The translations under genes were made by a program, and so were the position numbers. The notes under the pieces were generated by a model. That model was given only the letters and a program-made list of their open reading frames with translations. It made no database searches and was not told where the DNA came from. DNA of 28,912 bases from an uncultured archaeon (GTDB lineage: Archaea; Thermoplasmatota; Penumbrarchaeia; CAZSUE01): contig CAZSUE010000001.1 of NCBI GenBank assembly GCA_964609045.1, forward strand, positions 7,450 to 36,361. Direction: 5' to 3'. The first letter of the stretch is position 1. Each line of letters begins with the position of its first letter. Below, piece after piece: positions 569 to 27,053 of the stretch.

Positions 569-575
569 CCACATC

Positions 576-6346: not shown

Positions 6347-6360
6347 CGAATATTTTTATG
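6347..6360 (+). promoter_or_regulatory. Candidate BRE/TATA promoter giving a leaderless hjc transcript
   Basis: CGAA-TA-TTTTTATG ends 21 nt upstream of ATG 6382, the spacing expected when the start codon is at or near the TSS. No SD is present. Confidence 0.5.
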
Positions 6361-6381
6361 CCCGGAACGAAATATGGGTCC

Positions 6382-6900
6382 ATGGGTACTGAATACGAGC
6401 ACGAACTTCGCCGCGTCCTCGCCGGCGACATGGATATGATCGACCAAGTCACGCGCTCCTGCGATCTCCTCACCACGGACAAGTACCGGAAAGTGGCTTC
6501 CAAACCGTTCCTCGTCGTCCGTGCGGCGGGGTCGGGGCCGTTCGACCTCGTCGCCCTACGAGAGGACATATCGTTCCCCATCGAGGTGAAAAGCTCGAAG
6601 AACGACCGGCTCTATCTCAGTACGGGGAGACTCGCCGACCAGCTCGAATCGCTCACCTCCACCTGCACCCGCTCCGGATTGGTCCTCCTCTATGCTTACC
6701 GGCTCAAGCGTGTGCACGGCGATTCCTGGCGCGTCTTCACCCCGCCGACAGAAGACCTCTCCGGCCGGCTCGCCATCCTCCATCGGCGGATACCAAAACT
6801 GCGCCAGACCCCAAAGGGGAACCATGTGATGGACTGGGGACACGGCATGCCGCTGCATGCATTCATCGACTACCTCTGTACCGATGTGGAAGACATATGA
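6382..6900 (+). CDS. hjc: Hjc-like archaeal Holliday junction resolvase, PD-(D/E)XK nuclease (172 aa)
   Basis: N-terminal MGTEYEHELRRVL (Hjc G..ERE helix), RAAGSGPFDLVA and IEVKSS catalytic motifs. The ORF-track extension to 6283 runs through the GATC repeat and is unlikely to be translated. Confidence 0.75.
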   Translation: MGTEYEHELRRVLAGDMDMIDQVTRSCDLLTTDKYRKVASKPFLVVRAAGSGPFDLVALREDISFPIEVKSSKNDRLYLSTGRLADQLESLTSTCTRSGLVLLYAYRLKRVHGDSWRVFTPPTEDLSGRLAILHRRIPKLRQTPKGNHVMDWGHGMPLHAFIDYLCTDVEDI

Positions 6901-9265: not shown

Positions 9266-12200
9266 TTATTCGAACTCGGCACCGCATTGCGGGCATGTGG
9301 TCGCAGAGAGCGGTATGAGCGCGCCGCACTCGAAACACTCGACCAACTCTTCCTCGTCCGCATAGATCTCCGGCTCTTTTTCGTCCGCGTAGACCTCCGG
9401 CTCTTCCTCGCCGTACGGTTCGGGCTCGGCGTATTCCGTATCCACATCGACATCCTCGAAATCGCCCTCGTCGAAATCATCTTCGTAGCCTTCGTATTCG
9501 CCCATGTCTTCATCGATGAACTCTTCTTCGAGCACCGCACCGCAACTGGGACACACCGACGCCGTCAGCGGGATCAACTCACCGCATTCGAAACACTCGA
9601 CCATCTCTTCTTCCATCGGTGTGTATTCTTCCGCTTCTCCGAACTCTTCGGCCGGATATTCTTCGGCCTCGGGCGGGGCTTCGAATGTCTCGACATCCTC
9701 GAGGTCTTCGAACTCCTCACCACCGTATTCAGCGAACTCCTCCTCTTCGGCCACCTGTTCGAACTCGATCCCGCAGTTGGGACAGACCCGATCGTCCGCA
9801 CTCAACGGCTCACCGCATTCTGGACATTCGAACTCCGCTTCTTCGGGGAAGGGTTCTTCTTCGTAGCCCAGTGGCTCCTCCTCTTCGCCCAGTTCTTCTT
9901 CCTCGACCGGTTCTTCTTCTTCCAGCGACGGCGCCCTGATCGGTTCCAGCTCCTCGGCGCCCTCCAGTTCGCTCTCCATCGTCGGCAGTTCCTCGGTGAT
10001 ACCGACCTCGAGCACGCTGAGCGGACCGAACTTCGCCCCACATTCCGGACAGACCTCGGCACTGATGGGAATGACCGCGTGACATTCGCCACACTCGACC
10101 TCCTCACCGAACTCTGCACCACATTTGGGACATTTGGTCGCCGCGATATCGATGGCGGTACCACATTCGCTACATTCAGCACCCTTCGCTTCGCGGCTGC
10201 GATAGATGAAGAATATCGCCGCGCCGACGATGCCGATAACGATGAAGATGATAATGATCGCCCAGGGGAACGCTGCCCCTTCGGTCTTTTCCTCGCCCCT
10301 GATCGAGACCTTGATCTTATCCTCCGGCTGCCAATCGAGGTTGTACTCCTCGTTTTCCACCTCAAAGATCAGGTAGCGGTCCACCGGATTCGTATAGGTC
10401 GCCTCATCCACACCGGGGATGAACTGAATTTGGAAATTACCGTTCTGGACCGATACCGTCTGTTGGCGCGTGTTGCCGAGGAAGCCGACGGTAACGGTCA
10501 GTGTCTGGACCGGGTCGCCGTTATCGAACCGCACCTCACCGCTGACGATGTACGGCTCACCGTTCGTCGCTTCGCTCGGTGCATTGAACGAATCGAAGAT
10601 GAGCGCTTTCGGCTTGATCTTGACCGTGATATTGAGGACGAACTCGTTGTTCGTCTCGTTCGCCTCGCGCAGTTCGTTCCGCGGGTCCAGTGTGACGGAG
10701 ATATTGTGCCGCCCGCCGATCGAGGGGACGATCCAGTAGAAACTTAGGTTAAGCCGCTGTCCGACCCCGATCGATACGAACTGGGAGACGATGGTACGGT
10801 TGTCGTCCCAAATGGTCAGGTTCACCGCAGGCAAAGGCCTAAGCCAGTCATTCCGGAGGGTGAGGTTGATCGTCATGTTCGTCTCCTCCTCCACCGTGGC
10901 GTTCATCTCCACTGGCTCACCGGTAACGGAATAATTGAACGATTGATCGACCAGCACGAGGTCCGGTAGCGGGAGTACCTCGATAGTATCGGCCAGATCG
11001 TTGTTGCTCTCGTTGAGCTCGCCGAAACGATCGGCCGAGTCCACGACTGCCGCGATCATATGCGTGCCGATCGTCGTCGGTGTCCATGGGACCGGGAATG
11101 TCACCTTATTGTTCACCGCGAGCGGCAACTGATCGGTGATGCGGCCGTTCTCGGCGCTGCTGAAGTTCGCGATCGTCGTCCCATCATCGGTCACGGACAA
11201 TCGGAACGCGCCGATCGCATCGATACCGACATTCTGTACCGTGATCATGATCGTGACCTCGTTGTGCACGGCGGTGTAGTTCGTATCGGTCCGCTTGGCG
11301 GTGTCGAAGCTGATATCGCTCATCTTAACATCCATGCGCGTAAAGACCTCGACCTCTACCGTGTCGTTATTGTTCTGATAGTTCGACTCGTTCGTCAGCC
11401 CGTACTTATTGACCTGTACCCGGAAGGTATAGGTGCCGATCTGTGGCGCAGTCCAGTCGATAGAGACGACCGTGGAGTCGATGAGCCCGTGTTCGAGGTC
11501 CGCGCCCTCGAGCTCGTCGATGGTGGAGACATTGAGCTGCACATCGGTCTCACCCGCGAGGAAGAACACGACATCGATGAGTTCCGCGTCGGTCTCACCC
11601 TCGTTGAAGACCTCGGCGACGATCGTGATCGAGGTGCCTTCGCGCACCGTCTTCGGCGCGGACGCGTCCACACGCAGATCGGCGCGGGTCTTGACATTGA
11701 CCGGTCGCTGCGCGGTGTTGTCCTCTTCATTCCCTTCTGCGATCACATCGTTCTCGTCGAGCACGACGCGTATAAAATGGCGCCCTTCGACTGCGGGTTC
11801 CCAGTTGACCGCAAGTTCGCGGTCGCCCATTGCGGCCAGCGTGATGTTCCAGCTGGCGATCTGCGTCTGCTCCTCACCCACGACATCGTAGAGCGTCACA
11901 TTGAACCGGCGTGCATCGTCTTCGCCCTCGTTCTGGATAAAGAGCTCGATATAGACCGTCTCACCACGGACCACGCTGTCGGACGAGAGGGAGATATCCA
12001 TGGGGTTGATGAGGAGGTTCGCTTTCGTCCGTGCGGCCAGAGTCGCCGTATGTTCGTTGTTCTGTTCGTTGCGTTCGAGGATGTCGCCGTTCTCGTGGTT
12101 GATGTACGGCGGGTCGACGACCACACGGAAGGGGTGCTCGCCGGAATAGTCGAGGCTCCAGTTCTCCGCCGTGATCGTCACCGTCTCGCCGTAGTCGAGA

Positions 12201-15200
12201 TCCACCCGTTCCTCGTGGACGAGGGTCGTACTATCGTAGATGACGATATTGACATTGCTGACATTGATCATCCCGTCGTTCATGATCTGGGCCGAGATAT
12301 CGATCACATCGCCGATAACGGGGTCGTTATCCGAGAATGTCAGTGAGATGGGGTTCAGATCGACGCGCGGAAATACATACTGGACATACTCGAGGCTATT
12401 GTTGTTCTCGTTGTTCTCGAGGATCGCATTGGTATCGTCGACCACCACGCGAATGGTATGGTTGCCGGCGTTTTGTGGCGTCCAGATGACCGAGGCGGTG
12501 CTGGATGCGCCCGCACGCAGCGTTTCGATCGTCGTCTGGTCGAACGGCTCGTCGTCATCGTAGAACTGGACCATAATATCGGTGGCGTCGCTGCCGCCCA
12601 CATTGCGTACCGTCACTTCGATGCGGTTCTCGTAGCCCACCACGATCTCGGGTGCGTCGATCGGATCGAACTGGAGACTGCCCGGGACCGGGATGAAATC
12701 CGGAAGCAGGGTGGTGAATTGGAGCGTCGTATCCACATTCTCGTTGGCGATACAGTAGCCCACCTCGGAACTATACATCGCGCCCTGGAAATCATAGTTT
12801 GCCACCAGCCGATAGTTCCCGACGAACCAGTTCCGGTCACGGGTCACGATGGAGCCCGCCACCCGGAACAGCGCTTCGCCCTCGTCGTCGGTGAGCCCGT
12901 TCGTATAGAGGCGCCAGGAGCTCGTGCGCATCGAATAGTTGTACACACTTACATTCGCCCCTGCGATCAGTATCTCGTTGGGGTCCTCCGTGTGCACGGT
13001 GAGCCACCAATAGGTGGTAAAGGATGAACGCGTGTCGGTGATGGTCAGTGCCGGCGTCTCACCGGTGGGGCGCAGCGTATCGGTGCCGCACGCCGTGGTA
13101 TTCCCATCGAGCTCCAGCGGTTGGTTCAAGGTACTGTTCGTCATCTCCAGCACGGTGTTGTTGAATTTGAGCACCGCGCCATCGCTCGCCGAGAGCGTGG
13201 CCTCATCGAATTCGATCGTGTCGCGATCATCTGTCTGGTCGAGGACGATGCTCCCCGCCATCACCGTGGAGCGCTGAATGAGGATACTCGACGCGTCGAG
13301 GAGGATCGGATCATCCGTCTGGACTGTCGAATCGACGATCTGTACCTGCGGCGTCGCATCCCGCGTGGCGGGGGCTGCGGATGCGTTGGCAAAAGAGATC
13401 GCGCCGTTGAGGTCGGTATTGGAACGGAGCGCGAGCATTGCGTTGTCGGCCATGACGATGCGCTGGACATCGAGCTGCGAATCGCTCACCTCCAGCGAGG
13501 CGTTGTCGTAGAGATAGATTGTGAGCTCGGCGTTGCTCGTCAACACCTCGTTGGCGATCTCGAGGACACCGTCGCCGTCGACGAGGATGTAATAGCGATG
13601 ATCGGATTGCTGTTGCATCTGAAATGTGCCATCTTTCAATATCAGATGACCGTGGACGATCAGATTGCCCGTGTGGATCCGGTTCGATTCGATGGTCATG
13701 GTCGGCGCGTTGTGCCGTACCACGATATCGAGCCCACTGGTGGAGAAAACGGTGACCAAGACCGAGCGTGCGTTGTTCAGCTCATCCCCCTCGGCGAAGT
13801 CGTCATTCGGGTCGAGAACGAGCTCGAGCCGATGCATGCCAGCGTTCATCGCCGTCCAGACATACTGGACCGTTTCGGTGCTATTGGCGGCGAGGGTGGC
13901 GATCGTGAGCGTCGTCACGGTGATGGCACTGCCCTCGTGATGATCGACCAGCTCCACCGCGATATCGCTGAGATCGGAGCCGCCGGTATTGACCACCTCG
14001 GCGGTGACCGTCACCGGTTCGTTCTCCAGTGGATGGTCGGTGGAGACCGCGATGGACCCGATGCTCAAGTCCGGCCGAGCCACCACTTCCACCGTTCGCT
14101 GCCGGGTATTGTCCTCTTCGTCGAGCTCGACGATATCATCTGCTGGATCGAGCCGCACCATGAGAAGATGATCGCCGGTGGAAGACGGCGTCCATGTGAA
14201 CGCAACCTCGGTGGACACTCCCACTGAGAGTGACGCAACGACAGTGTCGTCCACTTCGACATCATCGACCAAGAGCACGACGGATATATCCTCCGCGACG
14301 ATATTGCCCTCATTGACCACCGTGGCGGTGACCTCCACCGTATTATCGACCATGGGACGATCGTTCGAGAGGACGATCTGTGAAGGTTGGATCGCGAGAT
14401 CGGGCACGAGATCGCGCAATACAATGACCTGCGCTTGGTTCTCGTCATCCATGACCGCCACCGATTCGTTGACGAGACCGGACGATTCCGCTTCGATACG
14501 ATAGTTGCCCACAAACCATTCACGCACCGACTCTTGCACGCTTGAGGGGAGCTCGAAAAGGATGTCGCCCGATACGGTGGTGGTCTTCGTACGATAGAGC
14601 GTTTCGTCCGTGGGATCAGCCTCGTCAAAGGAATAGACGCGCACCGTCGCCCCCGCAACGGCCATACCGTTGCCGTCTTGAACGGTCACCGTGAGCCACC
14701 AGTAGGTGCGATAGACCGCGGTGTCGTACACGGTCACATCGAGCTGCTCTCCGCCCATGTCGAGGCAATTGGTGCAATCTGCGGTGGTCGCGCCACGCAA
14801 CACGAGCGCCGGCGCAAAGCTCGTGTTCTTCGCAATGAGGCTCGTATTATCGAACACAAGCGTCCCTCCGGGTGTATCGAGTATAAGATCGTTCAATGAC
14901 ACCGTCTCGGTGTCGGCGTCGGTATCGAACGTGATCGCGGAACCGGTGAGGGTCGCGCCGTCCACCTCGACGCTGGGTGCGACGAGATGAAGCGCGTTCG
15001 TCGACGAGATCTCGGACTGGCCGGCGATCGTAACGCTCGCACCCGTTCCCGCCTGCCAATCCACCTGGCCATTGATCGTGGCACTTTCCACCGTCACGCT
15101 CGCGCTATCGCGCCCGACCAACGCCGTAAGCTCGAGTGTGGACCGCACCACCTGAACAAAACTCGTGTCGTACGCGTAGCAATAGAGCGGTTCGGCGCTT

Positions 15201-18200
15201 TCGAGCGTACTATCCTCGAAACGGATCTCGCCGGCGCCACTGACTTGGATGAAATAGCGATGGCTCTGATCTTGATCCATGGTGATCGAGGCATCGCGGA
15301 CGACCAATGTTCCCTCCACGAGGATATTGCCCGACACGATCCGATCGGTGCGGATCGTTTTCGTATCCCCCGCTGGCACCACGATATCGAGCCCGTCGGT
15401 GGAGAAGGCGTTGAACACGGTACGATGCTCGTTATTGCTCTCGTTCGACTCCGTCACCGTTCCATTCGGGTCCACCGTCAAAACGATGGAGTGCCGACCG
15501 GCGCGGGCGACCGTCCATTGGAACGAGAACGGCTGGGTCGTACCTGCATCGAGGTCGTATTCCGCCCGTCCGGCCTCCACCTCACCGTCATTCACCACGA
15601 TAGCCACCGTGGTGAGGTTGATCTGGCCGTCGTTCACCAGCTCGCCCGCAACAGTGACCGTATCACCCACGAAGACATGCGCGGGCGGCATACTGAGGCT
15701 GAGGGATTCGACCCGCAAGTCCGGGTTCATGACCACGGAATAAACCACGGTGGCGTTATTGTTCGTATAATCGATCTCGGTGACGGTCCGCTCCGCATTG
15801 ATGGCCACAAGAATTGTGTGCTGACCCAGCGTACCGGATCGCAACTGGACGAAGAATTCGTCGCTCTGGGTGCCGGCGTCAAGATCGACCATCCAGCTCT
15901 CGATCAACTCATCGTCGTCATAGAGCTCGATCATCGCGTTCTCCGCGGCAGCGGCGCCGCGGTTCCGGATCATGAAACTGACATTGATAGATTGTGAAAG
16001 GCTGGGCTGTACCGTCGACAGCTGGATATCGTCCGCGAGGACCTCGAGATCGGGTGCCATTCCGCTGAAGTTGAGCGTGGTCGCACGATTCCCCTCCTCG
16101 ACGGTGACAAATTGGACCGAGGACGATTCGCCGTAATAGCGAGCGGTCACCCGATAGTTGCCGACAAAAGCCGTGCCGTCGCTATCGACCACCGCACTCA
16201 ACACCCTGAACAACGCCGCGCCGTCGGAGTCGGTGACACCGTAGCTGTCGTTCGAAAAGACGCTCGGGCGCGCGGTGGAATAGTTCCAGACCGTCACGCT
16301 GGCGCCTTCGACCGAAAGCGCGTTGGCGTCCACGGTCGCCACGGTCAGCCACCAATATTCTCTCGCATGTGAGCCGCTGTCCGCGATGGAGAGCGCCACG
16401 ACGGTGTTGGTGATATTCGCGCTGCTCCCACCATCGAGCATGAGCGCTTGTCCGATCGAACAATTGGTCAGGTTCAGCTCCGCACCCTCGAAGACCAATG
16501 TTGCGGTCTCCTCGCTTTCGATGATGGTTTCCTCGAGATGGATCTCATCGGCGTCCGCGCTGGCGTCCAGCGCGTATTCGACGCTGTCAAACTCCGAGTA
16601 TCGGATCGTAATGGTCGTGGCGTCGAGCCGCATGGTGTCGATGGTCGCCACCGTTCCATGGATCTCGACGGTGGTGCCGGTATCGGCGACGAAAAGCGAG
16701 AGCGCTGCAATGGAATCTTCGAGACGGATCCGACCGCCGTTTTCGAGATAGAGGCTCAGATCAAGATTACTATCCAGTGCGGCATTGTCGGTGACCAGCT
16801 CACCGCCGTCGATCCAGATGAGATACCGCTGCGATGCGCTCTGGCGAATATCGAGGGCCGAGTCGTTGATATAGAGCGTGCCGCGGACGATCACATTACC
16901 GGAAAGGACCACATCGGTGGTGATCGATTCCACCTCGCCGTCGGGCACCACGAGATCGCTGGTGGAATGGGAATAAGCGCCGATGGTCTCCGACCGCGTA
17001 TTGTTCTCCTCGTTCGCTTCCACATACCGGTCGGTGGTGTCAATGCGCACCTCGAGGATGTGATCGCCCGCGCTCGTAAAGACCAGTGCCGGGATCCAGC
17101 TCACGGTCTCACCTGCAGCGAACGACTGCTGCGTCGTCGCCTCCAGTGCGCCGTCGAGGTAGAGCTCCACATCGATGTCCAATACCGGGCACAGACCGTC
17201 GTTGGTCAACTCTACGGTGACATCGAGCGTGTCGTCGACGAAGGTGTGCATGGAACTCGGCTGCAAGGCACTAATCAATAGGTCGGGGCTGGGGACAACC
17301 GTCACCGCCGCCGAGGCATCGTTGTTCGCATAGGACGATTCGATGATCTCCTCGCCGGGATTCACCATGACCCATACCGTCTGCGCCATGGCCTCGTCCG
17401 GTGTCCAGCTCATATTCACAACTGCATTGCCCATGGCCGAGATATTGACCCTCTTCGATCCGATCAGTACGGTATCGTGGTAGAACTCGACGAGCACCTC
17501 TCGTGCCGCGGTGGACCCGAGGTTATCGACCTGTACTTCGATCGAGACCGGGTTGGCCACAGAGGGTTGATCGGGAGAGAGCGTGATGTTTTCGCTCATG
17601 ACCGCGAGATCGGGTATCAGCGCGTCCAGGGTGAGTTGGACCTCTTTATCCGTGTACCGCATGGAGATGTCGCGCGTATCCGACACGAGCGTATCGATCG
17701 TTGCGTTCACCTTGTAGTTCCCGATGAAGAACGAGCCGGTGTGATTGATCACCGTGCCGATGGTGGCAAACCGCACCCACCCCTCTGCACCGGTGGTGGC
17801 GTTCGCATAGAGAGCGTCGACGAGGCCGCGTTCGATCTTCGTCACGGTGACATTCGCTCCCGCCACCGCCGCGGCGTTCGCGTCGATTACGGTGACGGTG
17901 AGCCACCAATAACGTCGAGCCACGGAGTTCTCGTCGGCGATCGCGATGGCGATCTGCTGCCCCGACGAGCGGCTCGAACTGGTGATATTGAGCGTCGAAG
18001 AGCTGTCGAGCGCGATATCGAGTTCGAGCGTGGCGTTGACCAATGTGATTTCAGCATTCGTGAATGTAAGTCCAGTGGTGGAAGCGGGTGCGCAGGTGAG
18101 ATTCTCGATGGTGATCGTATCGGCGTCGTCGGATCGATCCAGTGTGATCGTTTCCGCATCGATGACCGCGTCGGTGACCGAGAGCGTTCTTGCGTCGACA

Positions 18201-21200
18201 TCGATCGTATCCGCGATAATGTGGCTATCGTTTCGGATCGTGAGCGAAGTGGTTGATTGCGCGCTCATCGAGGTGACCGTGAAACTGGTGCCGTCGATCA
18301 AAAGCTCACCACCGTCATGGACAAAGACCGCGAGCGCCTCGTCGCTGGAGAGCGAGGAATCGCTGAGCGTCATGATCCCGCCGTCGACCCAGATACAATA
18401 ATCCGCCACGCCCTCTTGCAGTATCTCGAGTGCGCTATCGTCGACTTCCAGCGTGCCGCGCACGATGATATTCCCGGATTGGATGAAATCCGCGCCGATC
18501 TGCGCGGTGTGGCCGTCGGCGACGACGATGTCCTCGCTGGAGACACTAAATATCTGGACATCGAGCTGTTGCATATTATTGTCGAACGCGGTCTCGTTGA
18601 TCGTCGCCTCGGGATTGATGTGAACCGTAATTTCATGGGCGCCGTAGCTCCCCGCCGTCCACTCGTACGAGAAGGCGCGGGTCTCCATGCCGTCGAGATC
18701 GACGAGCCAGCTCTGCTCGGTTTCGCCGTCGGCCATGAGCACGATCACACATCCGTTGACGGCCGCAGCCTTCGTATTCTCCACCTCGAACGCGATGGTG
18801 ACGGTATCGCCGACGAAGAGCGGTTCTGTGATACCGGTGGCAGCCGCAGTGGCGTTCAGTGCCACTACTTCCAGATCGGGCGTCTCGTATACGGTGATCG
18901 TCTGCGCCATCGAATTGTTCACGAGCGTGACCTCGTCCATGGTCGAACTGACCACCACGCTGATCATACGGATCCCCGTGGCGTTGGGTACCCATGTCCA
19001 CTGGAGCGTTACATTGTCTGCGCTATCCAGTTGCGACACCGTGGTCTGATCGTACTGCTCACCGTCGATGAGGAGCGCGACCGTGAAGTCCCACGCGCTG
19101 GTCCAGCCCGCGTTCTCGACGACTACGGTGATAACCGCCTCGTTCGAGACCGTCACATTCACGGGAGAGAGCGCGATGGATTGCACACCGAGGTCGGGGA
19201 GGAGGTTCGTGAACTGGAGCGTCGCGTCGAGGTTCGAATCGGTGACGACCACCGGGCTCGTTGCGGTAGCGTTCCCGTCGAGCGTCGCGTTGATGCGATA
19301 GTTGCCCACCGCGAGGCGCTTGGCCGCGGTGATCCGATGGCTCTGGACACAGAACCGGACCATCCCGTCAATATCGGTAGCTGCGTCATCCACCATCTCC
19401 CAGCTCGCCGTCGCATTCTTGTACTGGTAGAGTGCGACGGTGGCGCCCGGGACCGGTGCATCGTTCGCATCGACGGTGGTCACCGTGAGCCACCATTTGA
19501 TCGCCACAACGGCGCTGTCGTTCACCGTCACCGCACCGGTGGCGGAATCCACGATGGTCGCATTGGTCGCGCCCTCGAACTGCAGCGGTTGGTTCAGTGT
19601 GGAGTTGCGTATCTGCATGGTGGTGAGGTCGAGGGTGAGCGCGTTGGCGTTCGCCGCGTCGATCGTCGACTCGTCGATGAGCAGCTGATCGAGCGTGGCC
19701 GCGTCCAAGATGCCGATATGGTCACCCGCCAGCGTGCTGTTGGCGATCGTGATCGAGGGTGCGCCGAGATCGATCGTCGACGCGCTCAGCGTCGAGTCCG
19801 TGATGGTGATGGTATCGTTCCCGATGGCCAGCGCCCCCTCGACATCGAGTTGCGACCCGTCGATAGTGATCGCATCGGCCTGCGCACCGTGGACGAGATT
19901 GAGCGTCGCATGGGTATCGATCAGCGTCAGCTCCGCGCCCTTTTCGAGATAGAGGTCCAGCGGGAGACCGCCTTCACTGACGAGGACGGCGCTATCGAAG
20001 ACGAGGTGCCCGGAACCGTTCACTTGGATCTTATACCGGTTGTTCGGCGTCTGGTCCACCGTGAAGGAGCCGTTACTGATAGTGAATGTATCGTTCACGA
20101 AGAGGTTGCCGCTGAGATAGAAATCGTCGTCGATATCTGCAGTGGTCGCAGTGGTGATGAGATCGTCGCCAGTGGTGGAATAGACGATTGCGGCGGCTAT
20201 GATCGTGTTGTTCGTCTCCACCGTTTCCGTAAACGCATTGTCGGGGTCGACGACGACACTGAGCGTATGCTCGCCCGGATCGTCCGCCGTCCATGTAAAA
20301 GAAAGCGTAGAGTCTCCGTTTGCGACGATATCCTGGCTCATATTGGCCACCTCCACTCCGTTGTCGTAGAGCGCGACGGTGACATTGGTCAGGTCCACCG
20401 CGCCGTGGTTCTCCACCCGGACTTCCACAGCGACCTCCTCGCCGCCCAGTGGATGATCGCTACTCAGCGATAGATCGCTCACCGCCAGATCGGGGTAGTG
20501 CTGGATCGTGTACTCGACCCATGCCGTATTGTTCGTCTCGTTGCTTTCATCGATATGATCGTCCCAATCGACCTCGACGGTGAGGTTGTAGGTACCGGTG
20601 GCGGCGGGTGTCCAGTTGAAGGCGACTGTTGTTGAATCGTTGGCACCGAGGATAGTGATCGTGGTGCTCTCTATCTCGGTCCCGTCCACGGTAAGCCGTG
20701 CAGCGATCGTATCGGCCGCAACTTCGCCGGTATTGAGCACGGTCGCCTCGACGGTGAAGGTCGGTCCGACGATGGGCAGTTCATCGCTCACAACGATAGT
20801 GCTCACCTCGAGGTCCGGCTTGAGGGCGGCGAAGGTGAGATTCCGGACGAGGTTCGCATCCACCACCACGGCGGAGACGAGATCGCTCTGTTCGGTGAGA
20901 TAGGTCGCGTTGACGCGGTAGTTGCCGACAAAGTAGGTGTTCTCGGCGGTGATGCGATAGCTTTGGACCGAAAAGAGCGCCGTGCCCGTGGCGTCGGTCT
21001 CCTCGTCGTCGACCAAGACCCATGTCTGTGTGGCGTTCCGATATCGATAGAGCGAAACGGTGGCGCCCTCGATCGGTAACGCATTGGCGTCGCGTGCGGT
21101 CACGGCCAGCCACCACTCGAGATGCACCTCCGCGTCGTCGTTGACGGTAATGGCGCCGGTGCTCGAGTCGAGGACGGTCACATCGGTGGCGCCGCCCACG

Positions 21201-24200
21201 GTGATCGGCTGGCTCAGCGTGGCGTTCTGGATCAATACTGTGTCCTGGTCGAAGAGAAGGGCGGAGGTATCCACCGATTGGATCACCGTCTCAGCGATGA
21301 CCATCGTGTCGTAGGATGCGTCCTCGAGCACTGCGACGGTGTCGGCGTCGATGACGCTGGAGAGGATGGTGACATCCGTTGCGCCGAAATGGAGTTCGTC
21401 GGCGTCGAGGGTGGAGTTCGCAATGGCGAGCGTGCCGTTGCCGAGCACCAACGCCGTTGCGGATTCCACCGCGGAATCGTTCATGAGGATGGTGTCGGCC
21501 CGAGCCGCGTGGAAGATATTCAGCGTGAGATCGGCGCTTTCGAAGGTGATGTTCCCACCCGATTCGACATAAAGATCCAGCGGTCGTCCCGTATCACTGA
21601 CGATCGCCGCGTTCTCGACGACGAGATGACCGCTGGCGTTCACCTGGATCTTGTATCGGTTCGCCGGCGACTGGTCGATGGTCAGAGTGCCGTTGCGAAC
21701 GATGAAGGTATCGTTGACATAGAGGTTGCCGCTGAGATAGAAATCGCTCTCGATGGGCGCGGTGGTGTCGTCCGTAATGAGATCGTCGCCGTTGGCGGAA
21801 TAGACGATCAGCTCCGATGTGATGCTATTGTTCGCTTCATTCGTTTCTGTGATCATATCCATGGGATCGATGCTGACATTGAGGGTATGCTCGCCCGGGT
21901 TTTCGGCAATCCAGTCGAACGAGAGCGTCGTCTCGGTGCCGCCGTCGAGGTCGAACGACTGCGTGGCCGCCTCCACGCCGTTATCGAAAAGAGTGGCGTA
22001 GACGCCGGTCAGATCGACCATGCCCGCATTGCGCACCACCGCGTCGACGGTCACGGTCCGTCCACCCTCGGGATGGTCGTGAGAGAGCGTGATCGTCGTC
22101 GGGAAAAGGTCCGGGTATGCGTTGACCGTATAGATGATCCATTCGGTATTGTTCGTCTCATCCATTTCCACGATGGTATCGTTCACGTCGACCGTTACGG
22201 TGAGGTTGTAATCGCCGATCGCATCGGGTGTCCAAAGGAATGAGACCACCGTGGTTGCACCGGCATCGAGCTCGGCGATAGTGGTGGTGTTCGTTCTTGC
22301 ACCGTCGACGAGGAATCGTACTGCGACATCGTACGCCGCAACGGCGCCGTCGTTCTCGATGGTGGCGTTGACGGTGACCGGCGCGCCCGTCACGGGGAGG
22401 TCGACTTCGACCTCGACCCCGTCGGGGAGGGAGAGGTCCGGTTGCAATCCACCGAACTGGAGTGTGCGAGCGACATTGCCGGTGGTGACCACTGGATAGA
22501 GGACATTGCTCCGTGCTGCGCCGTCGGAGGCGTTGATGCGATAGTTGCCCATGAAATAGCTGGTTGAGACGGTCTCGTAGTAGCTCTGGGCGCTAAAGAC
22601 GGTAACACCGTCGGCATCGGTGGGTTGCGTGGTGACCCTCTGCCATTGCTCGTTAGCCGCGTTGTAACGGTAGAGGTCGACCATCGCTCCTCCGACGGGG
22701 TGTGCGTTGGCGTCCACGGCGGTGACGCTGAGCCACCAGGAGGTATTCATCACTGCGTTCCCGGCGAGGGTGTAGACCATGGTCGTATTCAATCGCGCAA
22801 CCTCGCTCTCACCCTTGAAGGTGAACGGTAGGTCAGGGGTGGAGTTCACAAAAGAGCCGGATAGGACCTCGATCTCGTTGGTCACCGGTGAGGCGATGGA
22901 GAACTCCGACTCCACCACCGTCAATGTATCGATCGTTGTAGCGGGGTCGAAGAGGAACGAATCGCCGATCAATTGGACATTATCGGTCTCGAACTGCGCC
23001 GCGGCGAATTCATAATTGTCGGCATCCAATGAGGAATTGACGATTTGCACGCTGCTCGCTGCGAGGACCATATCGTTGGCAAGCGTGAGCGTCGAGTTGC
23101 GGATGACGACAGCGGTGGCGCCCGAGGCGTGGATCAGATTGAGATCGAGCGTGGAGCGTTCCACGATGAGCGTGCCACCGGCCTCGATATAGAGGTCGAG
23201 CGGGCGACCGGTCTGGCTTTGGAGCACCATATCGGAGAGCGTGAGATCGCCGGTGCTGTTGATCTGGATCTTGTATCGGTGTGCGGGGGACTGGTCGATG
23301 GTCAGCGTCCCGTTCGCTATCGCAAAGGAGCCGTTGACGAAGAGGTTGCCGCTGATCTGGAAATCGGATCCGATGTCCGGCGTGTCGTCCTCGGCGATAT
23401 AATCGTCGCCGGTGGCGGTATAGACGATCATCGCGCCTTCGAGGGTGTTGTTGAGCTCGTTGGATTCTGCGATGATATCCAGTGCGTCGACGGTGACCGT
23501 TAATTGGTGCTCGCCGGGTGCGGCGGCGGTCCATGAGAAGGGGACCAGCGTACCGCCCGATGCGGGGACGGTCACGCTCTGGTTACCGATCTCGGTGCTC
23601 CCGTCGAGGAGCGTAACGGTGACGCCTTCGAGTTCTTCAACGCCGCTATTGTTCACCGCGACATCGATGGTGACCTCCTCACCGGCCAGTGGATGGTCGC
23701 TTTCGATCGTCATCATCGATGCGTAGATATCGGGTCGGGCCGCGATGGTGATGAACTGTTCAGCGGTATTGTTCGTCTCATCATCTTCCGCGATAGCGTC
23801 CAGCGGGTCGACGATCACGGTCACATTGTAGGACCCGTTCGCCGTTGGCGTCCATGCGAGCAAGACGGTGGTGGAATCGTGCGCCTCGATATGCGCGATC
23901 GTGGTGTTTGCGACCTCGGTGCCATCGACGAGGAGCCCAACGAGGATATCGTCGACGCCGTAGCTGCCGTTGTTGTAGACGGTTGCGTTGACCGTTAATG
24001 ACTGATCGGGGATGAGCATGCCCGAGACATTCGTGATGGCGGCGGTCAGATCGGGGACGAGGTCGGCATACTGCAATTGGAGCTGGTTGTTCTCGTCCGA
24101 GACGATCACCGACCGTCCGCTGTGGTTGTAATAGACGCCCTCGAAGAGATAACTGGCGTTGACGAAATAGTTGCCGACGAAGAGTTCGTTCTCGGCGGTG

Positions 24201-26794
24201 AGGATCGTATCCTCCGCGACGAAGAGGGCGTTCCCCTCCGCATCGGTGGTTGCCGTTGCATACGGATAGACCTCTTGCGGAGTGCCTTGAGTATAGTTAA
24301 AGACCGATACGGTGGCGTTCTCGATTACAAATCCGTTGGCGTCCACCACATGCACCGCGAGCCACCAGGCCCGGGTGAGGTTCGCGCTATCGCTGAGCGT
24401 CGCCGTTACCATGTCACCTTGGAGCGTGGTCGTATTGATGAAGAGTGCGTCGGTGGCCCCTTCCAGTTGGAACGACGGGTCGACGCTGGTATTGATCATG
24501 CGGAACGGATCGGTGCCCGCGACCCGTATGGCGTTGCTGGATGCGATATCGAGGCGCGTATCGTTGATATAGATCGCCTCGGAGCCGCTGTCGCGGTCCA
24601 GTGTGAGTTTCCCGAGGGTGAGATCGCTGTTGTCGATGGCGACGAGATCGACATCCAGCATCGCCCGCGGACTCGTGACCGTCGCGTTCGCGATGCGTAT
24701 CGCGCTGCCGGTACTGTCGATGAGGTTCACCGCGCCGGTGAGGTTCGTGTTCTCGAGCGCGATCGTCGCACCGTTCCTCCCGGCGAGCGTCCCGAGGTTC
24801 AATTCTGAGCCCTGGGTGATGAACCGTCCGCCGTCGAGGACATAGAGATTGAGCGGGTAGTTGCTCGAGAGGGTGCACCCGTCGAGGGTAAGCTGGCCGT
24901 CATTTCGGACGAGGATATAGAAATGCTGCGTCGCGCTCTGTTGGACGAAGAACGAATCGGCGCTGATGGTGAGGTCGCCTTCGACGATCAAATTGCCCGA
25001 AAGGATCTGGCTCTCCGTATAGGTCTTACTTTGCGTAGGGCCGATGTAGATATCGGTACCGCTGGTGTAGTATGGCGGCCCCGGCGGCGCGAGGTAGGTC
25101 CCCAGCGTGACATTCTTGGTCTCCACGCCGGTTTGGAAATTGGGGTATGGATCGAATGAGATACTGGGCAGCGGCTTCGTATAGTAAGTGTCGGCGCCCA
25201 CTTCCAGGCTCGCGTTCAATTGGTAGTTCACCGTGGTATAACTATTGGGATAGCTCGAGGCGTCGATGCGGTCGGTCTTCATGGGGAGCCGTACGCGACC
25301 GTTCTTATCGGTGACATTGAAATCGGTCTCATCGCGGCCGAGATGATCGAGCACCCAGGCGGGCGGGATGTCGCTTATTGCGGTGGTGTTCGAATAATAA
25401 TAGCGATCGACGGTGGCGTTCCCGATGGGGACCGAGGCCGCATCTGAGACAAAGACATCGAGCCAGCGATAGATATTGACCGCGGAATCGTTCTCATTAT
25501 CCCCAAACGAGAACGGCGGTTCTTTCAAAAACGGGTTCGACGGGGTCTGGTCAGTGTCGATGGTGATATTGTAGAGGTTCGCCACGGAGCCGTTGATAAG
25601 ACGGATCGTATTCTTGAGCGCGCTCTCCTCCAGCGGCTTGAAATCGATCATGATCGCGCTGTCGATGGCCGTGAAGGTCGAGTTGTCGAGGTTGATGTCG
25701 CGGCTCGTGGTGAGTACGCCGATCCAGACATAATCGAACGAGACATTGTTCCCCGCAGGATCGTTATTGGTGAAGGTCACATTGAGCGTCGCGATATCGG
25801 CGGCGGTGGTGATCCCTTCGTCGTAGAGATTGCAGCTGAGCTGGGCCTCGCCCGTCGTGGCGGTGGGAACACCGAGCGTGCCGTTGATGTCCCCATCTTC
25901 CGTGGAGAAATTGACCGCGCCGGTGCCGACATACCCCGACTCGGTACGATATTGCGCGAGGAGGACGATATCGAAGAACGGCTCTTGCACGCCGGCGAGA
26001 TCGAACCCGTCGAGCCACATCGTCTGGTTGGACTCCACGGTATAAGATATCTCGTCGTCGTAATAGAGCATCGGCTCTGAACCGGTGGCGTTGTCTTCGG
26101 CGTCGTTGATCTCGTCGACCAAGAGCTTGGCGTCCCATTCTTCCGCGGCGGCGTTCTCGTAGAGGTCGAGGAACTCGGACTCGATGGAGGTTATATTACT
26201 GTTCTTAAAGATCATGACCGGCGCATCGTCGTTATCGTCCGGCGTGGGATAGCCGTCGGGCGGTGTGAGCCCCTTGAAGGTCGAGTTGCGGAGGGTCAGC
26301 GTCGCGTTGGTGGTGGTGAAAGTGCCGGGGAACTGGAATGTCGAGTCCTCGATCTCGCTGTGGTTGGCCTCCGAATCGGCGATCTCGAAAAAGAGCTTCA
26401 GATACGGTTTGGAGAGGTCTGTCGCCGTGGTGACCGTCGCATTATCGAACTCGATCTTCCCGCCGTCGATGACACGGAACGCATATTCGTGGTTGTCGTC
26501 GTGGGTGTATGGATCGCCGTCCGGGCCGGAATCCTGCAAAAAGATGATCGAGGCATTGCGTACGATAAGTACGCCGCCGTTAGTCACCGTGATATTGCCT
26601 CGTTGCCGAAATGTCGTGTCCTCGATCACCATTGTTTCGCCGTCGACGAGCACGGGGCCCGTGTTCGAACGCACCCCCGAAGCCTCCACTTCGGGTTTGA
26701 GAAATGCGAACTGTCCAAAGAGTGAAGACATCAATACGCCAATAATGAAGATCGAAACCGCTTTCGTGCGCCAATCAAACCGATCGAGTTGCAT
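9266..26794 (-). CDS. Giant (about 5842 aa) single-pass cell-surface glycoprotein/adhesin: beta-helix, carboxypeptidase-regulatory-like Ig and CARDB repeats, TM helix, cytoplasmic zinc-ribbon/acidic tail
   Basis: One uninterrupted 17.5-kb ORF. Start at ATG 26794 with SD GGAGAGGT 6 nt upstream. Signal peptide MQLDRFDWRTKAVSIFIIGVLMSSLFGQFAFLKPEVEA. Twenty PDL...D...I.E..E.NN CARDB-like repeats and nine (W/R)WL.V...D.N...GNY units. TM AFPWAIIIIFIVIGIVGAAIFFIY (about 10203-10272). Five CxxC-x10-CxxC ribbons. Confidence 0.93.
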   Translation of the reverse strand: MQLDRFDWRTKAVSIFIIGVLMSSLFGQFAFLKPEVEASGVRSNTGPVLVDGETMVIEDTTFRQRGNITVTNGGVLIVRNASIIFLQDSGPDGDPYTHDDNHEYAFRVIDGGKIEFDNATVTTATDLSKPYLKLFFEIADSEANHSEIEDSTFQFPGTFTTTNATLTLRNSTFKGLTPPDGYPTPDDNDDAPVMIFKNSNITSIESEFLDLYENAAAEEWDAKLLVDEINDAEDNATGSEPMLYYDDEISYTVESNQTMWLDGFDLAGVQEPFFDIVLLAQYRTESGYVGTGAVNFSTEDGDINGTLGVPTATTGEAQLSCNLYDEGITTAADIATLNVTFTNNDPAGNNVSFDYVWIGVLTTSRDINLDNSTFTAIDSAIMIDFKPLEESALKNTIRLINGSVANLYNITIDTDQTPSNPFLKEPPFSFGDNENDSAVNIYRWLDVFVSDAASVPIGNATVDRYYYSNTTAISDIPPAWVLDHLGRDETDFNVTDKNGRVRLPMKTDRIDASSYPNSYTTVNYQLNASLEVGADTYYTKPLPSISFDPYPNFQTGVETKNVTLGTYLAPPGPPYYTSGTDIYIGPTQSKTYTESQILSGNLIVEGDLTISADSFFVQQSATQHFYILVRNDGQLTLDGCTLSSNYPLNLYVLDGGRFITQGSELNLGTLAGRNGATIALENTNLTGAVNLIDSTGSAIRIANATVTSPRAMLDVDLVAIDNSDLTLGKLTLDRDSGSEAIYINDTRLDIASSNAIRVAGTDPFRMINTSVDPSFQLEGATDALFINTTTLQGDMVTATLSDSANLTRAWWLAVHVVDANGFVIENATVSVFNYTQGTPQEVYPYATATTDAEGNALFVAEDTILTAENELFVGNYFVNASYLFEGVYYNHSGRSVIVSDENNQLQLQYADLVPDLTAAITNVSGMLIPDQSLTVNATVYNNGSYGVDDILVGLLVDGTEVANTTIAHIEAHDSTTVLLAWTPTANGSYNVTVIVDPLDAIAEDDETNNTAEQFITIAARPDIYASMMTIESDHPLAGEEVTIDVAVNNSGVEELEGVTVTLLDGSTEIGNQSVTVPASGGTLVPFSWTAAAPGEHQLTVTVDALDIIAESNELNNTLEGAMIVYTATGDDYIAEDDTPDIGSDFQISGNLFVNGSFAIANGTLTIDQSPAHRYKIQINSTGDLTLSDMVLQSQTGRPLDLYIEAGGTLIVERSTLDLNLIHASGATAVVIRNSTLTLANDMVLAASSVQIVNSSLDADNYEFAAAQFETDNVQLIGDSFLFDPATTIDTLTVVESEFSIASPVTNEIEVLSGSFVNSTPDLPFTFKGESEVARLNTTMVYTLAGNAVMNTSWWLSVTAVDANAHPVGGAMVDLYRYNAANEQWQRVTTQPTDADGVTVFSAQSYYETVSTSYFMGNYRINASDGAARSNVLYPVVTTGNVARTLQFGGLQPDLSLPDGVEVEVDLPVTGAPVTVNATIENDGAVAAYDVAVRFLVDGARTNTTTIAELDAGATTVVSFLWTPDAIGDYNLTVTVDVNDTIVEMDETNNTEWIIYTVNAYPDLFPTTITLSHDHPEGGRTVTVDAVVRNAGMVDLTGVYATLFDNGVEAATQSFDLDGGTETTLSFDWIAENPGEHTLNVSIDPMDMITETNEANNSITSELIVYSANGDDLITDDTTAPIESDFYLSGNLYVNDTFIVRNGTLTIDQSPANRYKIQVNASGHLVVENAAIVSDTGRPLDLYVESGGNITFESADLTLNIFHAARADTILMNDSAVESATALVLGNGTLAIANSTLDADELHFGATDVTILSSVIDADTVAVLEDASYDTMVIAETVIQSVDTSALLFDQDTVLIQNATLSQPITVGGATDVTVLDSSTGAITVNDDAEVHLEWWLAVTARDANALPIEGATVSLYRYRNATQTWVLVDDEETDATGTALFSVQSYRITAENTYFVGNYRVNATYLTEQSDLVSAVVVDANLVRNLTFAALKPDLEVSTIVVSDELPIVGPTFTVEATVLNTGEVAADTIAARLTVDGTEIESTTITILGANDSTTVAFNWTPAATGTYNLTVEVDWDDHIDESNETNNTAWVEYTIQHYPDLAVSDLSLSSDHPLGGEEVAVEVRVENHGAVDLTNVTVALYDNGVEVANMSQDIVANGDSTLSFTWTADDPGEHTLSVVVDPDNAFTETVETNNTIIAAAIVYSTTGDDLITTATTADIDDDFYLSGNLFVNDTFTISNGSFTVDQTPNNRYKIQVNGSGHLVFDSAVLVSEGGLPLDLYLEKGAELTLIDTHATLNLVHGAQADAITIDGSQLDVEGALAIGNDTITITDSTLSASTIDLGAPSITIANSTLAGDHIGILDAATLDQLLIDESTIDAANANALTLDLTTMQIRNSTLNQPLQFEGATNATIVDSATGAVTVNDSAVVAIKWWLTVTTVDANDAPVPGATVALYQYKNATASWEMVDDAATDIDGMVRFCVQSHRITAAKRLAVGNYRINATLDGNATATSPVVVTDSNLDATLQFTNLLPDLGVQSIALSPVNVTVSNEAVITVVVENAGWTSAWDFTVALLIDGEQYDQTTVSQLDSADNVTLQWTWVPNATGIRMISVVVSSTMDEVTLVNNSMAQTITVYETPDLEVVALNATAAATGITEPLFVGDTVTIAFEVENTKAAAVNGCVIVLMADGETEQSWLVDLDGMETRAFSYEWTAGSYGAHEITVHINPEATINETAFDNNMQQLDVQIFSVSSEDIVVADGHTAQIGADFIQSGNIIVRGTLEVDDSALEILQEGVADYCIWVDGGIMTLSDSSLSSDEALAVFVHDGGELLIDGTSFTVTSMSAQSTTSLTIRNDSHIIADTIDVDARTLSVTDAVIDAETITLDRSDDADTITIENLTCAPASTTGLTFTNAEITLVNATLELDIALDSSSTLNITSSSRSSGQQIAIAIADENSVARRYWWLTVTVIDANAAAVAGANVTVTKIERGLVDALYANATTGAEGWVRFATIGTVINHTGSFFIGNYKVNATIDTLVSDTRDISMRYTDKEVQLTLDALIPDLAVMSENITLSPDQPSVANPVSIEVQVDNLGSTAAREVLVEFYHDTVLIGSKRVNISAMGNAVVNMSWTPDEAMAQTVWVMVNPGEEIIESSYANNDASAAVTVVPSPDLLISALQPSSMHTFVDDTLDVTVELTNDGLCPVLDIDVELYLDGALEATTQQSFAAGETVSWIPALVFTSAGDHILEVRIDTTDRYVEANEENNTRSETIGAYSHSTSDLVVPDGEVESITTDVVLSGNVIVRGTLYINDSALDIRQSASQRYLIWIDGGELVTDNAALDSNLDLSLYLENGGRIRLEDSIAALSLFVADTGTTVEIHGTVATIDTMRLDATTITIRYSEFDSVEYALDASADADEIHLEETIIESEETATLVFEGAELNLTNCSIGQALMLDGGSSANITNTVVALSIADSGSHAREYWWLTVATVDANALSVEGASVTVWNYSTARPSVFSNDSYGVTDSDGAALFRVLSAVVDSDGTAFVGNYRVTARYYGESSSVQFVTVEEGNRATTLNFSGMAPDLEVLADDIQLSTVQPSLSQSINVSFMIRNRGAAAAENAMIELYDDDELIESWMVDLDAGTQSDEFFVQLRSGTLGQHTILVAINAERTVTEIDYTNNNATVVYSVVMNPDLRVESLSLSMPPAHVFVGDTVTVAGELVNDGQINLTTVAIVVNDGEVEAGRAEYDLDAGTTQPFSFQWTVARAGRHSIVLTVDPNGTVTESNESNNEHRTVFNAFSTDGLDIVVPAGDTKTIRTDRIVSGNILVEGTLVVRDASITMDQDQSHRYFIQVSGAGEIRFEDSTLESAEPLYCYAYDTSFVQVVRSTLELTALVGRDSASVTVESATINGQVDWQAGTGASVTIAGQSEISSTNALHLVAPSVEVDGATLTGSAITFDTDADTETVSLNDLILDTPGGTLVFDNTSLIAKNTSFAPALVLRGATTADCTNCLDMGGEQLDVTVYDTAVYRTYWWLTVTVQDGNGMAVAGATVRVYSFDEADPTDETLYRTKTTTVSGDILFELPSSVQESVREWFVGNYRIEAESSGLVNESVAVMDDENQAQVIVLRDLVPDLAIQPSQIVLSNDRPMVDNTVEVTATVVNEGNIVAEDISVVLLVDDVEVDDTVVASLSVGVSTEVAFTWTPSSTGDHLLMVRLDPADDIVELDEEDNTRQRTVEVVARPDLSIGSIAVSTDHPLENEPVTVTAEVVNTGGSDLSDIAVELVDHHEGSAITVTTLTIATLAANSTETVQYVWTAMNAGMHRLELVLDPNDDFAEGDELNNARSVLVTVFSTSGLDIVVRHNAPTMTIESNRIHTGNLIVHGHLILKDGTFQMQQQSDHRYYILVDGDGVLEIANEVLTSNAELTIYLYDNASLEVSDSQLDVQRIVMADNAMLALRSNTDLNGAISFANASAAPATRDATPQVQIVDSTVQTDDPILLDASSILIQRSTVMAGSIVLDQTDDRDTIEFDEATLSASDGAVLKFNNTVLEMTNSTLNQPLELDGNTTACGTDTLRPTGETPALTITDTRSSFTTYWWLTVHTEDPNEILIAGANVSVYNYSMRTSSWRLYTNGLTDDEGEALFRVAGSIVTRDRNWFVGNYRLVANYDFQGAMYSSEVGYCIANENVDTTLQFTTLLPDFIPVPGSLQFDPIDAPEIVVGYENRIEVTVRNVGGSDATDIMVQFYDDDEPFDQTTIETLRAGASSTASVIWTPQNAGNHTIRVVVDDTNAILENNENNNSLEYVQYVFPRVDLNPISLTFSDNDPVIGDVIDISAQIMNDGMINVSNVNIVIYDSTTLVHEERVDLDYGETVTITAENWSLDYSGEHPFRVVVDPPYINHENGDILERNEQNNEHTATLAARTKANLLINPMDISLSSDSVVRGETVYIELFIQNEGEDDARRFNVTLYDVVGEEQTQIASWNITLAAMGDRELAVNWEPAVEGRHFIRVVLDENDVIAEGNEEDNTAQRPVNVKTRADLRVDASAPKTVREGTSITIVAEVFNEGETDAELIDVVFFLAGETDVQLNVSTIDELEGADLEHGLIDSTVVSIDWTAPQIGTYTFRVQVNKYGLTNESNYQNNNDTVEVEVFTRMDVKMSDISFDTAKRTDTNYTAVHNEVTIMITVQNVGIDAIGAFRLSVTDDGTTIANFSSAENGRITDQLPLAVNNKVTFPVPWTPTTIGTHMIAAVVDSADRFGELNESNNDLADTIEVLPLPDLVLVDQSFNYSVTGEPVEMNATVEEETNMTINLTLRNDWLRPLPAVNLTIWDDNRTIVSQFVSIGVGQRLNLSFYWIVPSIGGRHNISVTLDPRNELREANETNNEFVLNITVKIKPKALIFDSFNAPSEATNGEPYIVSGEVRFDNGDPVQTLTVTVGFLGNTRQQTVSVQNGNFQIQFIPGVDEATYTNPVDRYLIFEVENEEYNLDWQPEDKIKVSIRGEEKTEGAAFPWAIIIIFIVIGIVGAAIFFIYRSREAKGAECSECGTAIDIAATKCPKCGAEFGEEVECGECHAVIPISAEVCPECGAKFGPLSVLEVGITEELPTMESELEGAEELEPIRAPSLEEEEPVEEEELGEEEEPLGYEEEPFPEEAEFECPECGEPLSADDRVCPNCGIEFEQVAEEEEFAEYGGEEFEDLEDVETFEAPPEAEEYPAEEFGEAEEYTPMEEEMVECFECGELIPLTASVCPSCGAVLEEEFIDEDMGEYEGYEDDFDEGDFEDVDVDTEYAEPEPYGEEEPEVYADEKEPEIYADEEELVECFECGALIPLSATTCPQCGAEFE
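9354..9407 (-). repeat. In-frame 27-bp tandem duplication in the acidic tail (EPEVYADEK/EPEIYADEE)
   Basis: TCGTCCGCATAGATCTCCGGCTCTTTT (9354-9380) followed by TCGTCCGCGTAGACCTCCGGCTCTTCC (9381-9407). Confidence 0.85.
13004..24367 (-). repeat. Intragenic supra-module repeat with a period of about 1.55-1.69 kb
   Basis: WW codons of the WWL.V motif at about 24362, 22733, 21110, 19490, 17903, 16349, 14696 and 13004. A 26-bp identical block AGAGGTTGCCGCTGAGATAGAAATCG occurs at 20101 and 21721, with a near copy at 23341. Confidence 0.9.
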
Positions 26795-26800
26795 GGTATT

Positions 26801-26808
26801 ACCTCTCC
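26801..26808 (-). promoter_or_regulatory. Shine-Dalgarno site of the giant surface-protein gene
   Basis: Minus strand GGAGAGGT followed by 6 nt and ATG 26794. Confidence 0.6.
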
Positions 26809-26835
26809 GTGCAGACCAAGAATGTTTATTGTATG

Positions 26836-26848
26836 ATATATATTTCCA
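26836..26848 (-). promoter_or_regulatory. Candidate TATA promoter of the giant surface-protein gene
   Basis: Minus strand GGAAATATATAT in an AT-rich island about 42-50 nt upstream of the start. Confidence 0.5.
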
Positions 26849-27053
26849 CAGTAGTACCTCTGAGATTCCCAATGCTTCGACACGCTCTCGACTCGCCATG
26901 ACATGCGCTATCGATCGCGGCTCTCTCACGATCGAAATGCACGCTTCCATGCGCTCGTCTCAAGGGGCAAATGAAGGGGGCAGATCACGCGTGGAAAAGA
27001 TAGAAGCAAAGCCCTAAATTAGCTTCCTCAAGAGTTCTTGGTTGTTATATTGG

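Follow-up and report, generated by a model that had tools for sequence, protein, structure and literature searches.

Examination of a 28,912-nucleotide stretch of DNA from an uncultured archaeon of the phylum Thermoplasmatota (contig CAZSUE010000001.1; hereinafter, the window) identified a giant gene, a 17.7-kb open reading frame (ORF), whose 3' end encodes a single C-terminal transmembrane (TM) helix and a tail with five zinc ribbons. We interpret this tail as the part of a giant, glycosylated surface protein that docks, on the cytoplasmic side, to a specific, conserved intracellular partner, a reading to which we assign a probability of about one half. The evidence that carries it comes from a class-wide family of surface proteins with the same tail, in which the strongest purifying selection, as judged from protein alignments, appears to act on the cytoplasmic zinc ribbons and not on the ectodomain of 1,800-5,500 residues. 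Thermoplasmatota are an abundant, uncultured phylum in which a rigid wall is often absent, and the findings bear on how these archaea hold, arrange or sense their giant surface glycoproteins from within. The generic ribbon families and the wide occurrence of the TM-plus-ribbon architecture are already known; new here are the definition of the module across the class, the measurement that conservation within the protein is highest in the ribbons, and the five-ribbon, aromatic-acidic variant.

The tail beyond the TM helix consists of 310 residues and contains exactly five C-x2-C-x10-C-x2-C motifs (R1 to R5; regular-expression search of the translation; Table 1). Judged against curated gathering scores, the Pfam families Zn_ribbon_3 (PF13248; 90.1 bits with a cut-off of 27) and Zn_Ribbon_1 (PF13240; 77.2 bits, cut-off 25) each match five stretches of the tail, and DZR (PF12773) reaches 72.5 bits (cut-off 27.3); the five C4 ribbons of the original prediction are thus confirmed in number and position. 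All five ribbons fit these families and the NCBIfam entry NF033497 above the respective cut-offs, but the four families are generic, with no assigned function, and miss what sets the present tail apart, namely, the TM-proximal position, the leash and the family-specific terminal ribbon. The tail as a whole contains 35% Asp+Glu (30% Glu and 5% Asp), that is, ~110 carboxylates in 310 residues, and carries a net charge of -101, with Lys and Arg almost absent from the last two linkers. An AlphaFold2 model built on a 43-row alignment of related tails gives predicted local distance difference test (pLDDT) values of 82-95 (block means) for the TM helix and the five ribbons and ~43-55 for the linkers, with a predicted template modelling score of 0.28. 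The helix occupies residues 6-34 of the tail model with pLDDT >90, and all five ribbons are predicted to fold as short two-strand ribbons (pLDDT 82-94). The modelled tail is therefore best described as beads on a string, with folded ribbons joined by disordered linkers. The anticipated strong acidity and disorder of the linkers (39-50% Asp+Glu, low pLDDT) are likewise borne out.

Sequence features indicate that the tail is cytoplasmic, because the protein starts with a stretch that reads as a signal peptide or signal anchor, the N-x-S/T sequons lie only on the outer side, the Cys residues are concentrated in the tail, and the homologues carry basic juxtamembrane stretches; the intracellular location that was originally proposed is upheld on these grounds. 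Specifically, the ectodomain contains 151 sequons compared to 67 +/- 7 in composition-preserving shuffles, and the tail contains none; of the 33 Cys residues of the protein, 20 are found in the 310-residue tail and 13 in the 5,470-residue ectodomain. The basic stretches of the homologues (KKREK, RKRAK, RRR) lie after the helix and ahead of the first ribbon. The true start is probably M53, at window position 26794, which gives a protein of 5842 amino acids (aa), and an entry in a public protein collection (P0003) is the same protein beginning at M53 with the same length. According to Pfam, the ectodomain is composed of beta-helix, carboxypeptidase-regulatory-like (CarboxypepD_reg-like) and ~23 CARDB domains, with CARDB matches at E 1e-107 to 1e-123 in every third of the protein.

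Table 1. Features of the window (positions in the 28,912-nucleotide stretch; residues numbered in the 5894-aa translation of the ORF)
Feature	Residues	Window positions	Strand	Description and basis
Whole gene		9266..26950	minus	17.7-kb ORF, 5894 aa, type-I membrane glycoprotein; ORF list and translation
N-terminal signal peptide or signal anchor		26675..26794	minus	MQLDRFDWRTK + hydrophobic stretch + EVEASG; reading of the translation
Single C-terminal TM helix	5561-5584	10199-10270	minus	FPWAIIIIFIVIGIVGAAIFFIYR; hydropathy scan; basic stretch RSREAK directly after
Membrane-proximal double ribbon, R1+R2		10040..10174	minus	8-10 residues from the helix; DZR 72.5 bits; pLDDT 84-91
Ribbon R1	5593-5610	10121-10174	minus	CSECG..CPKCG; C4 motif regular expression and Pfam
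Ribbon R2	5620-5637	10040-10093	minus	CGECH..CPECG; C4 motif regular expression and Pfam
Linker 1		9827..10039	minus	71 aa, 39% Asp+Glu, 11% Pro, predicted disordered, pLDDT 43-53
Ribbon R3	5709-5726	9773..9826	minus	CPECGEPLSADDRVCPNCG; regular expression and Pfam; pLDDT ~82
Linker 2		9596..9772	minus	59 aa, 46% Asp+Glu, 14% Phe/Tyr, no Lys/Arg, pLDDT 47-53
Ribbon R4	5786-5803	9542..9595	minus	CFECGELIPLTASVCPSCG; internal copy of the terminal ribbon; pLDDT 92-94
Linker 3		9338..9541	minus	68 aa, 50% Asp+Glu, 13% Phe/Tyr
27-nucleotide tandem duplication in linker 3		9347-9400	minus	EPEVYADEK/EPEIYADEE, 85% identity (repeat family D10)
Terminal ribbon R5	5872-5889 (C4 motif)	9269..9337 (C4 motif 9284-9337)	minus	VECFECGALIPLSATTCPQCGAEFE; pLDDT 83-92
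Lhr-type helicase fused to AlkZ-like DNA glycosylase domain		471-6164	plus	1897-aa ORF; DEAD, Helicase_C, WH_Lhr, DEAD_assoc; Pfam
Hjc-like resolvase ORF		6283-6900		205 aa, after the Lhr-type helicase ORF

A HMMER scan with the helix plus tail over 1.84 billion cluster representatives (threshold E <=0.001) retrieved 721 public 50%-identity clusters. Among the best 150 of the 721 representatives, 139 have C-terminal ribbons that begin a median of 12 residues past a TM helix; exactly three ribbons, the double ribbon and a third one, are present in 112 of these 139 tails, and five are found only in one, the present protein. Two tail sub-types are visible among the public representatives. In the sub-type to which the present protein belongs, a double ribbon (MAECSECG…CPKCGAEFSDE[IV]ECGECG…CPxCGA) located ~10 residues past the helix is joined by a linker, which varies between 57 and 228 residues, to a terminal ribbon (AEC[YF]xCGAx[IV]P[LI]SAxxCPxCGA[EV]FE) with which the protein ends (alignments A3 and A4, respectively, for the double and the terminal ribbon). 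The present protein ends in this manner: its last residue is the end of R5 (VECFECGALIPLSATTCPQCGAEFE-stop), which scores 56.7 bits against the A4 profile.

The family is readily traced through the class. Within the 40 nearest genomes, which belong to the same class or phylum, the top-scoring ORFs measure ~1,700-2,000 aa and have CARDB repeats, a helix and a ribbon tail; all nine loci fetched from relatives end with …CPxCG[AT][VE]FE-stop. The terminal-ribbon profile matches the end of a 1.7-2.0k-aa ORF at E <=1.5e-12 in 32 of the 36 class relatives; only weaker, generic matches came from the four genomes of a single family and from the remainder of the phylum. A BLASTP comparison with one of the shorter members (P0020, 1,898 aa) yields E 6e-41, with ~1,000 C-terminal residues collinear through the helix and the ribbons, and within its own genome no gene matches the ~1,900-aa CARDB family better than the giant gene. 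Because of this collinear homology and best match, the gene is to be regarded, on sequence grounds, as the copy of the class-wide surface protein in its lineage, with the tail enlarged by a generic ribbon (R3) and a duplicate of the terminal one (R4). The ~1,900-aa CARDB proteins (P0020, P0013, P0016; loci L002-L035; metagenome-assembled genomes of Thermoplasmatota) share with it the order of the tail elements and the …CPxCGAEFE end. They differ in that the present ectodomain is three times longer, owing to repeated beta-helix, immunoglobulin (Ig) and CARDB units, that the tail bears five ribbons and not three, that the linkers contain 9% Phe/Tyr compared to a median of 0.5%, and that the purP-topA-folP synteny of the orthologues (see below) is absent at the present gene.

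The second tail sub-type (P0025-P0046 and others) has a double ribbon of the form GKxVECGxCGAxIP…CPKCGVEFE..TAKCSxCGAWIP…CPECG, a spacer of near-constant length (73-82 aa) before the third ribbon and another 56-124 residues after it. The near-constant length of this spacer suggests a folded element, not a leash.

The two additional ribbons of the present tail are of different kinds. R3 is a generic ribbon without the family-specific aromatic and Ile-Pro residues and scores 14 bits against the terminal-ribbon profile, whereas R4 scores 44.5 bits. The last two ribbons had been described as a recent, near-identical duplication. The duplication itself stands, but it is not near-identical and cannot be shown to be recent: the DNA of R4 and R5 is 72% identical over 90 nucleotides, reaching 86% over the best 36. 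The 27-nucleotide tandem in linker 3 (Table 1) is a more recent event than the R4/R5 duplication and shows that growth of the leash occurs by slippage. One extra terminal-type ribbon is also seen in a relative (L002), where it was added independently.

To locate the selective pressure, we aligned 12 full-length representatives of 1,770-1,954 aa, one per 50%-identity cluster. Mean pairwise identity is 28% in the ectodomain, 26% in the TM helix and 20% in the linker, compared to 57% in the double ribbon (48% without Cys) and 73% in the terminal ribbon (68% without Cys). Of all 30-column windows along the protein, the six with the highest conservation fall inside the cytoplasmic ribbons. Across 26 representatives, eight positions of the terminal ribbon are invariant (C15, C18, P23, C29, P30, C32, G33 and F36). 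Since conservation in the family peaks in the ribbons, a conserved cytoplasmic ligand is favoured over a passive anchor, and the argument that a merely anchored surface protein has no need of such a tail is strengthened compared to its original form.

Passive anchoring nevertheless deserves to be considered as an alternative. Under this scenario, a compact zinc-bound ribbon beside the membrane and a tail with a charge of -101 would act as a plug, or stop-transfer element, that holds the helix against the force exerted on a 5,500-residue ectodomain, without any specific ligand. The short distance between the helix and the double ribbon across the 139 tails is compatible with such a plug, as are the net charge of the tail and the acidic tails of other surface proteins in the same genome. 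However, a plug does not call for 68% identity outside of the Cys residues in the terminal ribbon amid 28% overall, nor for a ribbon placed invariably at the very C-terminus, and the charge of the linkers varies widely in the family (Asp+Glu from 12% to 71%, with aromatic residues nearly absent save in the present protein). We therefore regard passive anchoring as rather unlikely. Should there be no partner, the family would still be a clear-cut example of a conserved module for anchoring.

The docking reading can be put in mechanistic terms. The ribbons, and the terminal one in particular, would be knobs by which the tail binds a conserved protein inside the cell, and the flexible polyanionic leashes would allow these knobs to probe a depth of tens of nanometres under the membrane: the linkers comprise ~200 residues in total, which would amount to a contour length of ~70 nm at 0.36 nm per residue. 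The two family-specific knobs (R4 and R5), together with R3, would raise the valency of a protein with a threefold ectodomain. A different use of the same conserved elements would be homotypic clustering, whereby the terminal ribbon docks on a double ribbon, either within its own molecule or on one next to it, producing a lattice under the membrane. The joint occurrence of the double and the third ribbon in 112 of the 139 tails and the strong conservation of both double and terminal ribbons could be accommodated in this way, and we consider such clustering quite unlikely. A prediction of the complex of the double ribbon, the terminal ribbon and three Zn gave a score of 0.00 in a run without controls, a result that counts neither for nor against binding.

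The composition of the tail also evokes metal handling: 20 Cys residues in five C4 sites and ~110 carboxylates in poly-Glu/Asp-rich surroundings might serve at the membrane as a buffer or sensor of divalent cations such as zinc. Structural C4 ribbons, though, hold zinc tightly and exchange it poorly, and the conservation of the non-ligand residues would be left unexplained, so that this function appears extremely improbable.

By analogy, the organisation of the tail has its closest working precedent in CdpC of Haloferax volcanii (HVO_0399, DUF7093), a 346-aa peripheral protein that acts as the membrane anchor of FtsZ1. The N-terminal C3H zinc ribbon of CdpC stabilises an amphipathic membrane-binding helix, the linker of 243 residues is disordered and fast-evolving, and the C-terminal C4 ribbon binds FtsZ1 with a dissociation constant of ~1e-7 M, the binding being abolished by mutations of the zinc ligands; distant multi-ribbon relatives of CdpC have been reported in all Thermoplasmatota classes (bioRxiv 10.64898/2026.07.16.738847). 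The present tail resembles CdpC in the combination of a ribbon at the membrane, a long disordered linker (<55 pLDDT here) and a conserved C-terminal C4 ribbon. The anchors are different: that of CdpC consists of a peripheral amphipathic helix and a C3H site, whereas the present one is the integral TM helix of a giant ectoprotein, and all its sites are C4. Furthermore, neither the tail nor the terminal ribbon matched DUF7093 in Pfam at E up to 10, with the proviso that the HMMER filters may drop very weak matches. Given the lack of a DUF7093 match and the integral helix as the anchor, membership in the CdpC family was rejected and the tail is not assigned to that family; the two are set apart here by the DUF7093 model and the published description of CdpC. 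Taken together with the CdpC result, our observations suggest that the ribbon-leash-ribbon arrangement may be a general archaeal tether of cytoplasmic machinery to the membrane.

By the same analogy, a cytoskeletal filament is our leading guess for the partner, albeit a doubtful one; the genome encodes at least four proteins of the FtsZ/tubulin family, so candidate partners exist. That the tail belongs to a receptor or a cytoskeletal anchor, as the original prediction suggested, remains an inference, and the most explicit version is an integrin-like link between the outside and the inside of the cell, in which the terminal zinc knob would bind a filament of the FtsZ/tubulin or actin family much as the CdpC ribbon binds FtsZ1; this version is tentative and carries a low probability. 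Integrin beta tails are the short cytoplasmic docking tails of animal single-pass adhesion receptors that bind talin and kindlin. Judging from general knowledge of integrin-type receptors, the huge glycosylated ectodomain, the one helix and the non-enzymatic, presumed docking tail are alike, but there is no relation in sequence or fold, and the tails carry NPxY motifs there and zinc ribbons here. If such a link is real, the cytoskeleton would position the cell surface, or vice versa, and the system would have been scaled up in the present genome through the copying of knobs and the tripling of the ectodomain. A cytoskeletal partner would make the family a prokaryotic counterpart of adhesion-receptor coupling.

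Several observations, beside the missing DUF7093 match, weigh against the docking interpretation. Small zinc ribbons are structurally constrained, so that part of their conservation is due to folding. The acidity of the linkers is not conserved in the family, as detailed above, and the polyanion itself may therefore not matter. No partner turned up via gene neighbourhood, sequence and fold searches or the literature. The conserved neighbours of the orthologues are housekeeping genes, among which there is no candidate ligand, and the neighbours of the present gene are different. In particular, the orthologues reside in a block that consists of the surface protein gene, purP (DUF1246/DUF1297; 357 aa, of constant length in most genomes), a 169-aa ORF without a Pfam match, topA (topoisomerase I) and folP (dihydropteroate synthase), with purP directly downstream in 23 of the 25 loci (L011-L033, e.g. 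L016:835-11192). This is housekeeping synteny and offers no functional clue. In the window, purP is not adjacent to the present gene, nor was it found in the 83%-complete assembly. Apart from the helicase and resolvase genes (Table 1), the other neighbours in the window are ORFs without a strong Pfam match, with weak, sub-threshold thioredoxin-like matches only.

A different neighbourhood is observed in two more distant lineages of Thermoplasmata (L034, positions 3-932 and 6979-7650, and L035), where the surface-protein gene is flanked by genes for a KaiC-like ATPase and a DUF835 protein. These flanking genes could be taken to indicate a signal relay, in which binding or force at the ectodomain would alter the tail, or regulated intramembrane proteolysis would release it, whereupon the tail would act on a cytoplasmic hub such as a KaiC-like ATPase. 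Such neighbours are absent at the present gene and at most orthologues, and the tail contains no enzymatic or known signalling domain (Pfam, NCBIfam); accordingly, a relay of this kind seems very unlikely.

Searches for relatives with a known function returned generic ribbons. Sequence and profile searches of solved structures, together with Foldseek queried with the double-ribbon model, yielded only bL32, eL40, PolD DP2 and designed C2H2 arrays, and Foldseek with this model gave no fold match at E <=0.001; in NCBIfam, the only match is a generic archaeal rubrerythrin-like ribbon domain (NF033497). A feature search of the ESM Atlas produced one lead, a DZR cluster from Thermoplasmatota, at 0.83, under the 0.9 mark. 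When the tail was searched among proteins 0.55-1.75 times the length of its own protein, the sole match was the protein itself. Full-text literature searches on zinc-ribbon tails of archaeal surface proteins found no description of such tails; mentions of DZR in connection with CdrL and TackOD1 were set aside as unrelated in function. Experiments can now address two concrete objects with known invariant positions, namely, the terminal knob of 25 residues and the membrane-proximal double ribbon of 50 residues.

A census of the genome from which the window comes (977 contigs, 5.5 Mb, 83% complete, 2.8% contamination) identified 24 ORFs of at least 300 aa with a C4 ribbon after the last helix, including proteins of 4,913, 3,648, 3,049, 1,910, 1,819 and 1,771 aa. 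Together with the 721 public clusters, these ORFs agree with the earlier expectation that ribbon tails are common on membrane proteins of Thermoplasmata. Strings of ribbons on acidic linkers occur elsewhere in the genome, with four ribbons on contig C138, five on C333 and twelve on C489. The family-specific ribbons behave differently: the A3 profile of the double ribbon reaches 80.8 bits at the present gene, the highest single-domain score and the only match that strong in the genome, and the A4 profile scores as high as the 56.7 bits of R5 only there. The genome-wide census that had been proposed thus gave a split answer, in that generic ribbons on acidic strings are widespread, but a sorting tag shared across the genome is ruled out for the specific ribbons, because the family-specific double and terminal ribbons score high in one gene only.

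Some of the other ribbon proteins are unusual in their own right. The protein encoded on C489 (plus strand, ORF from offset 1835, 871 aa) has about five helices followed by twelve C4 ribbons, that is, six double ribbons on acidic linkers, and a 1,583-aa protein encoded on C3 carries a tail with three near-identical tandem ribbons. The assembly itself, at 5.5 Mb, is larger than all 40 nearest genomes (1.3-5.0 Mb). Many other large single-pass proteins (C31, C94, C281, C574, C3, C411, C391) possess acidic tails with acidic-aromatic C-termini, such as …EDAFDF, …KEAFDF, …DDIFDF, …FDEDDFEL and …DEEFDLD, which, by their sequence, may represent a second, separate tail-end motif.

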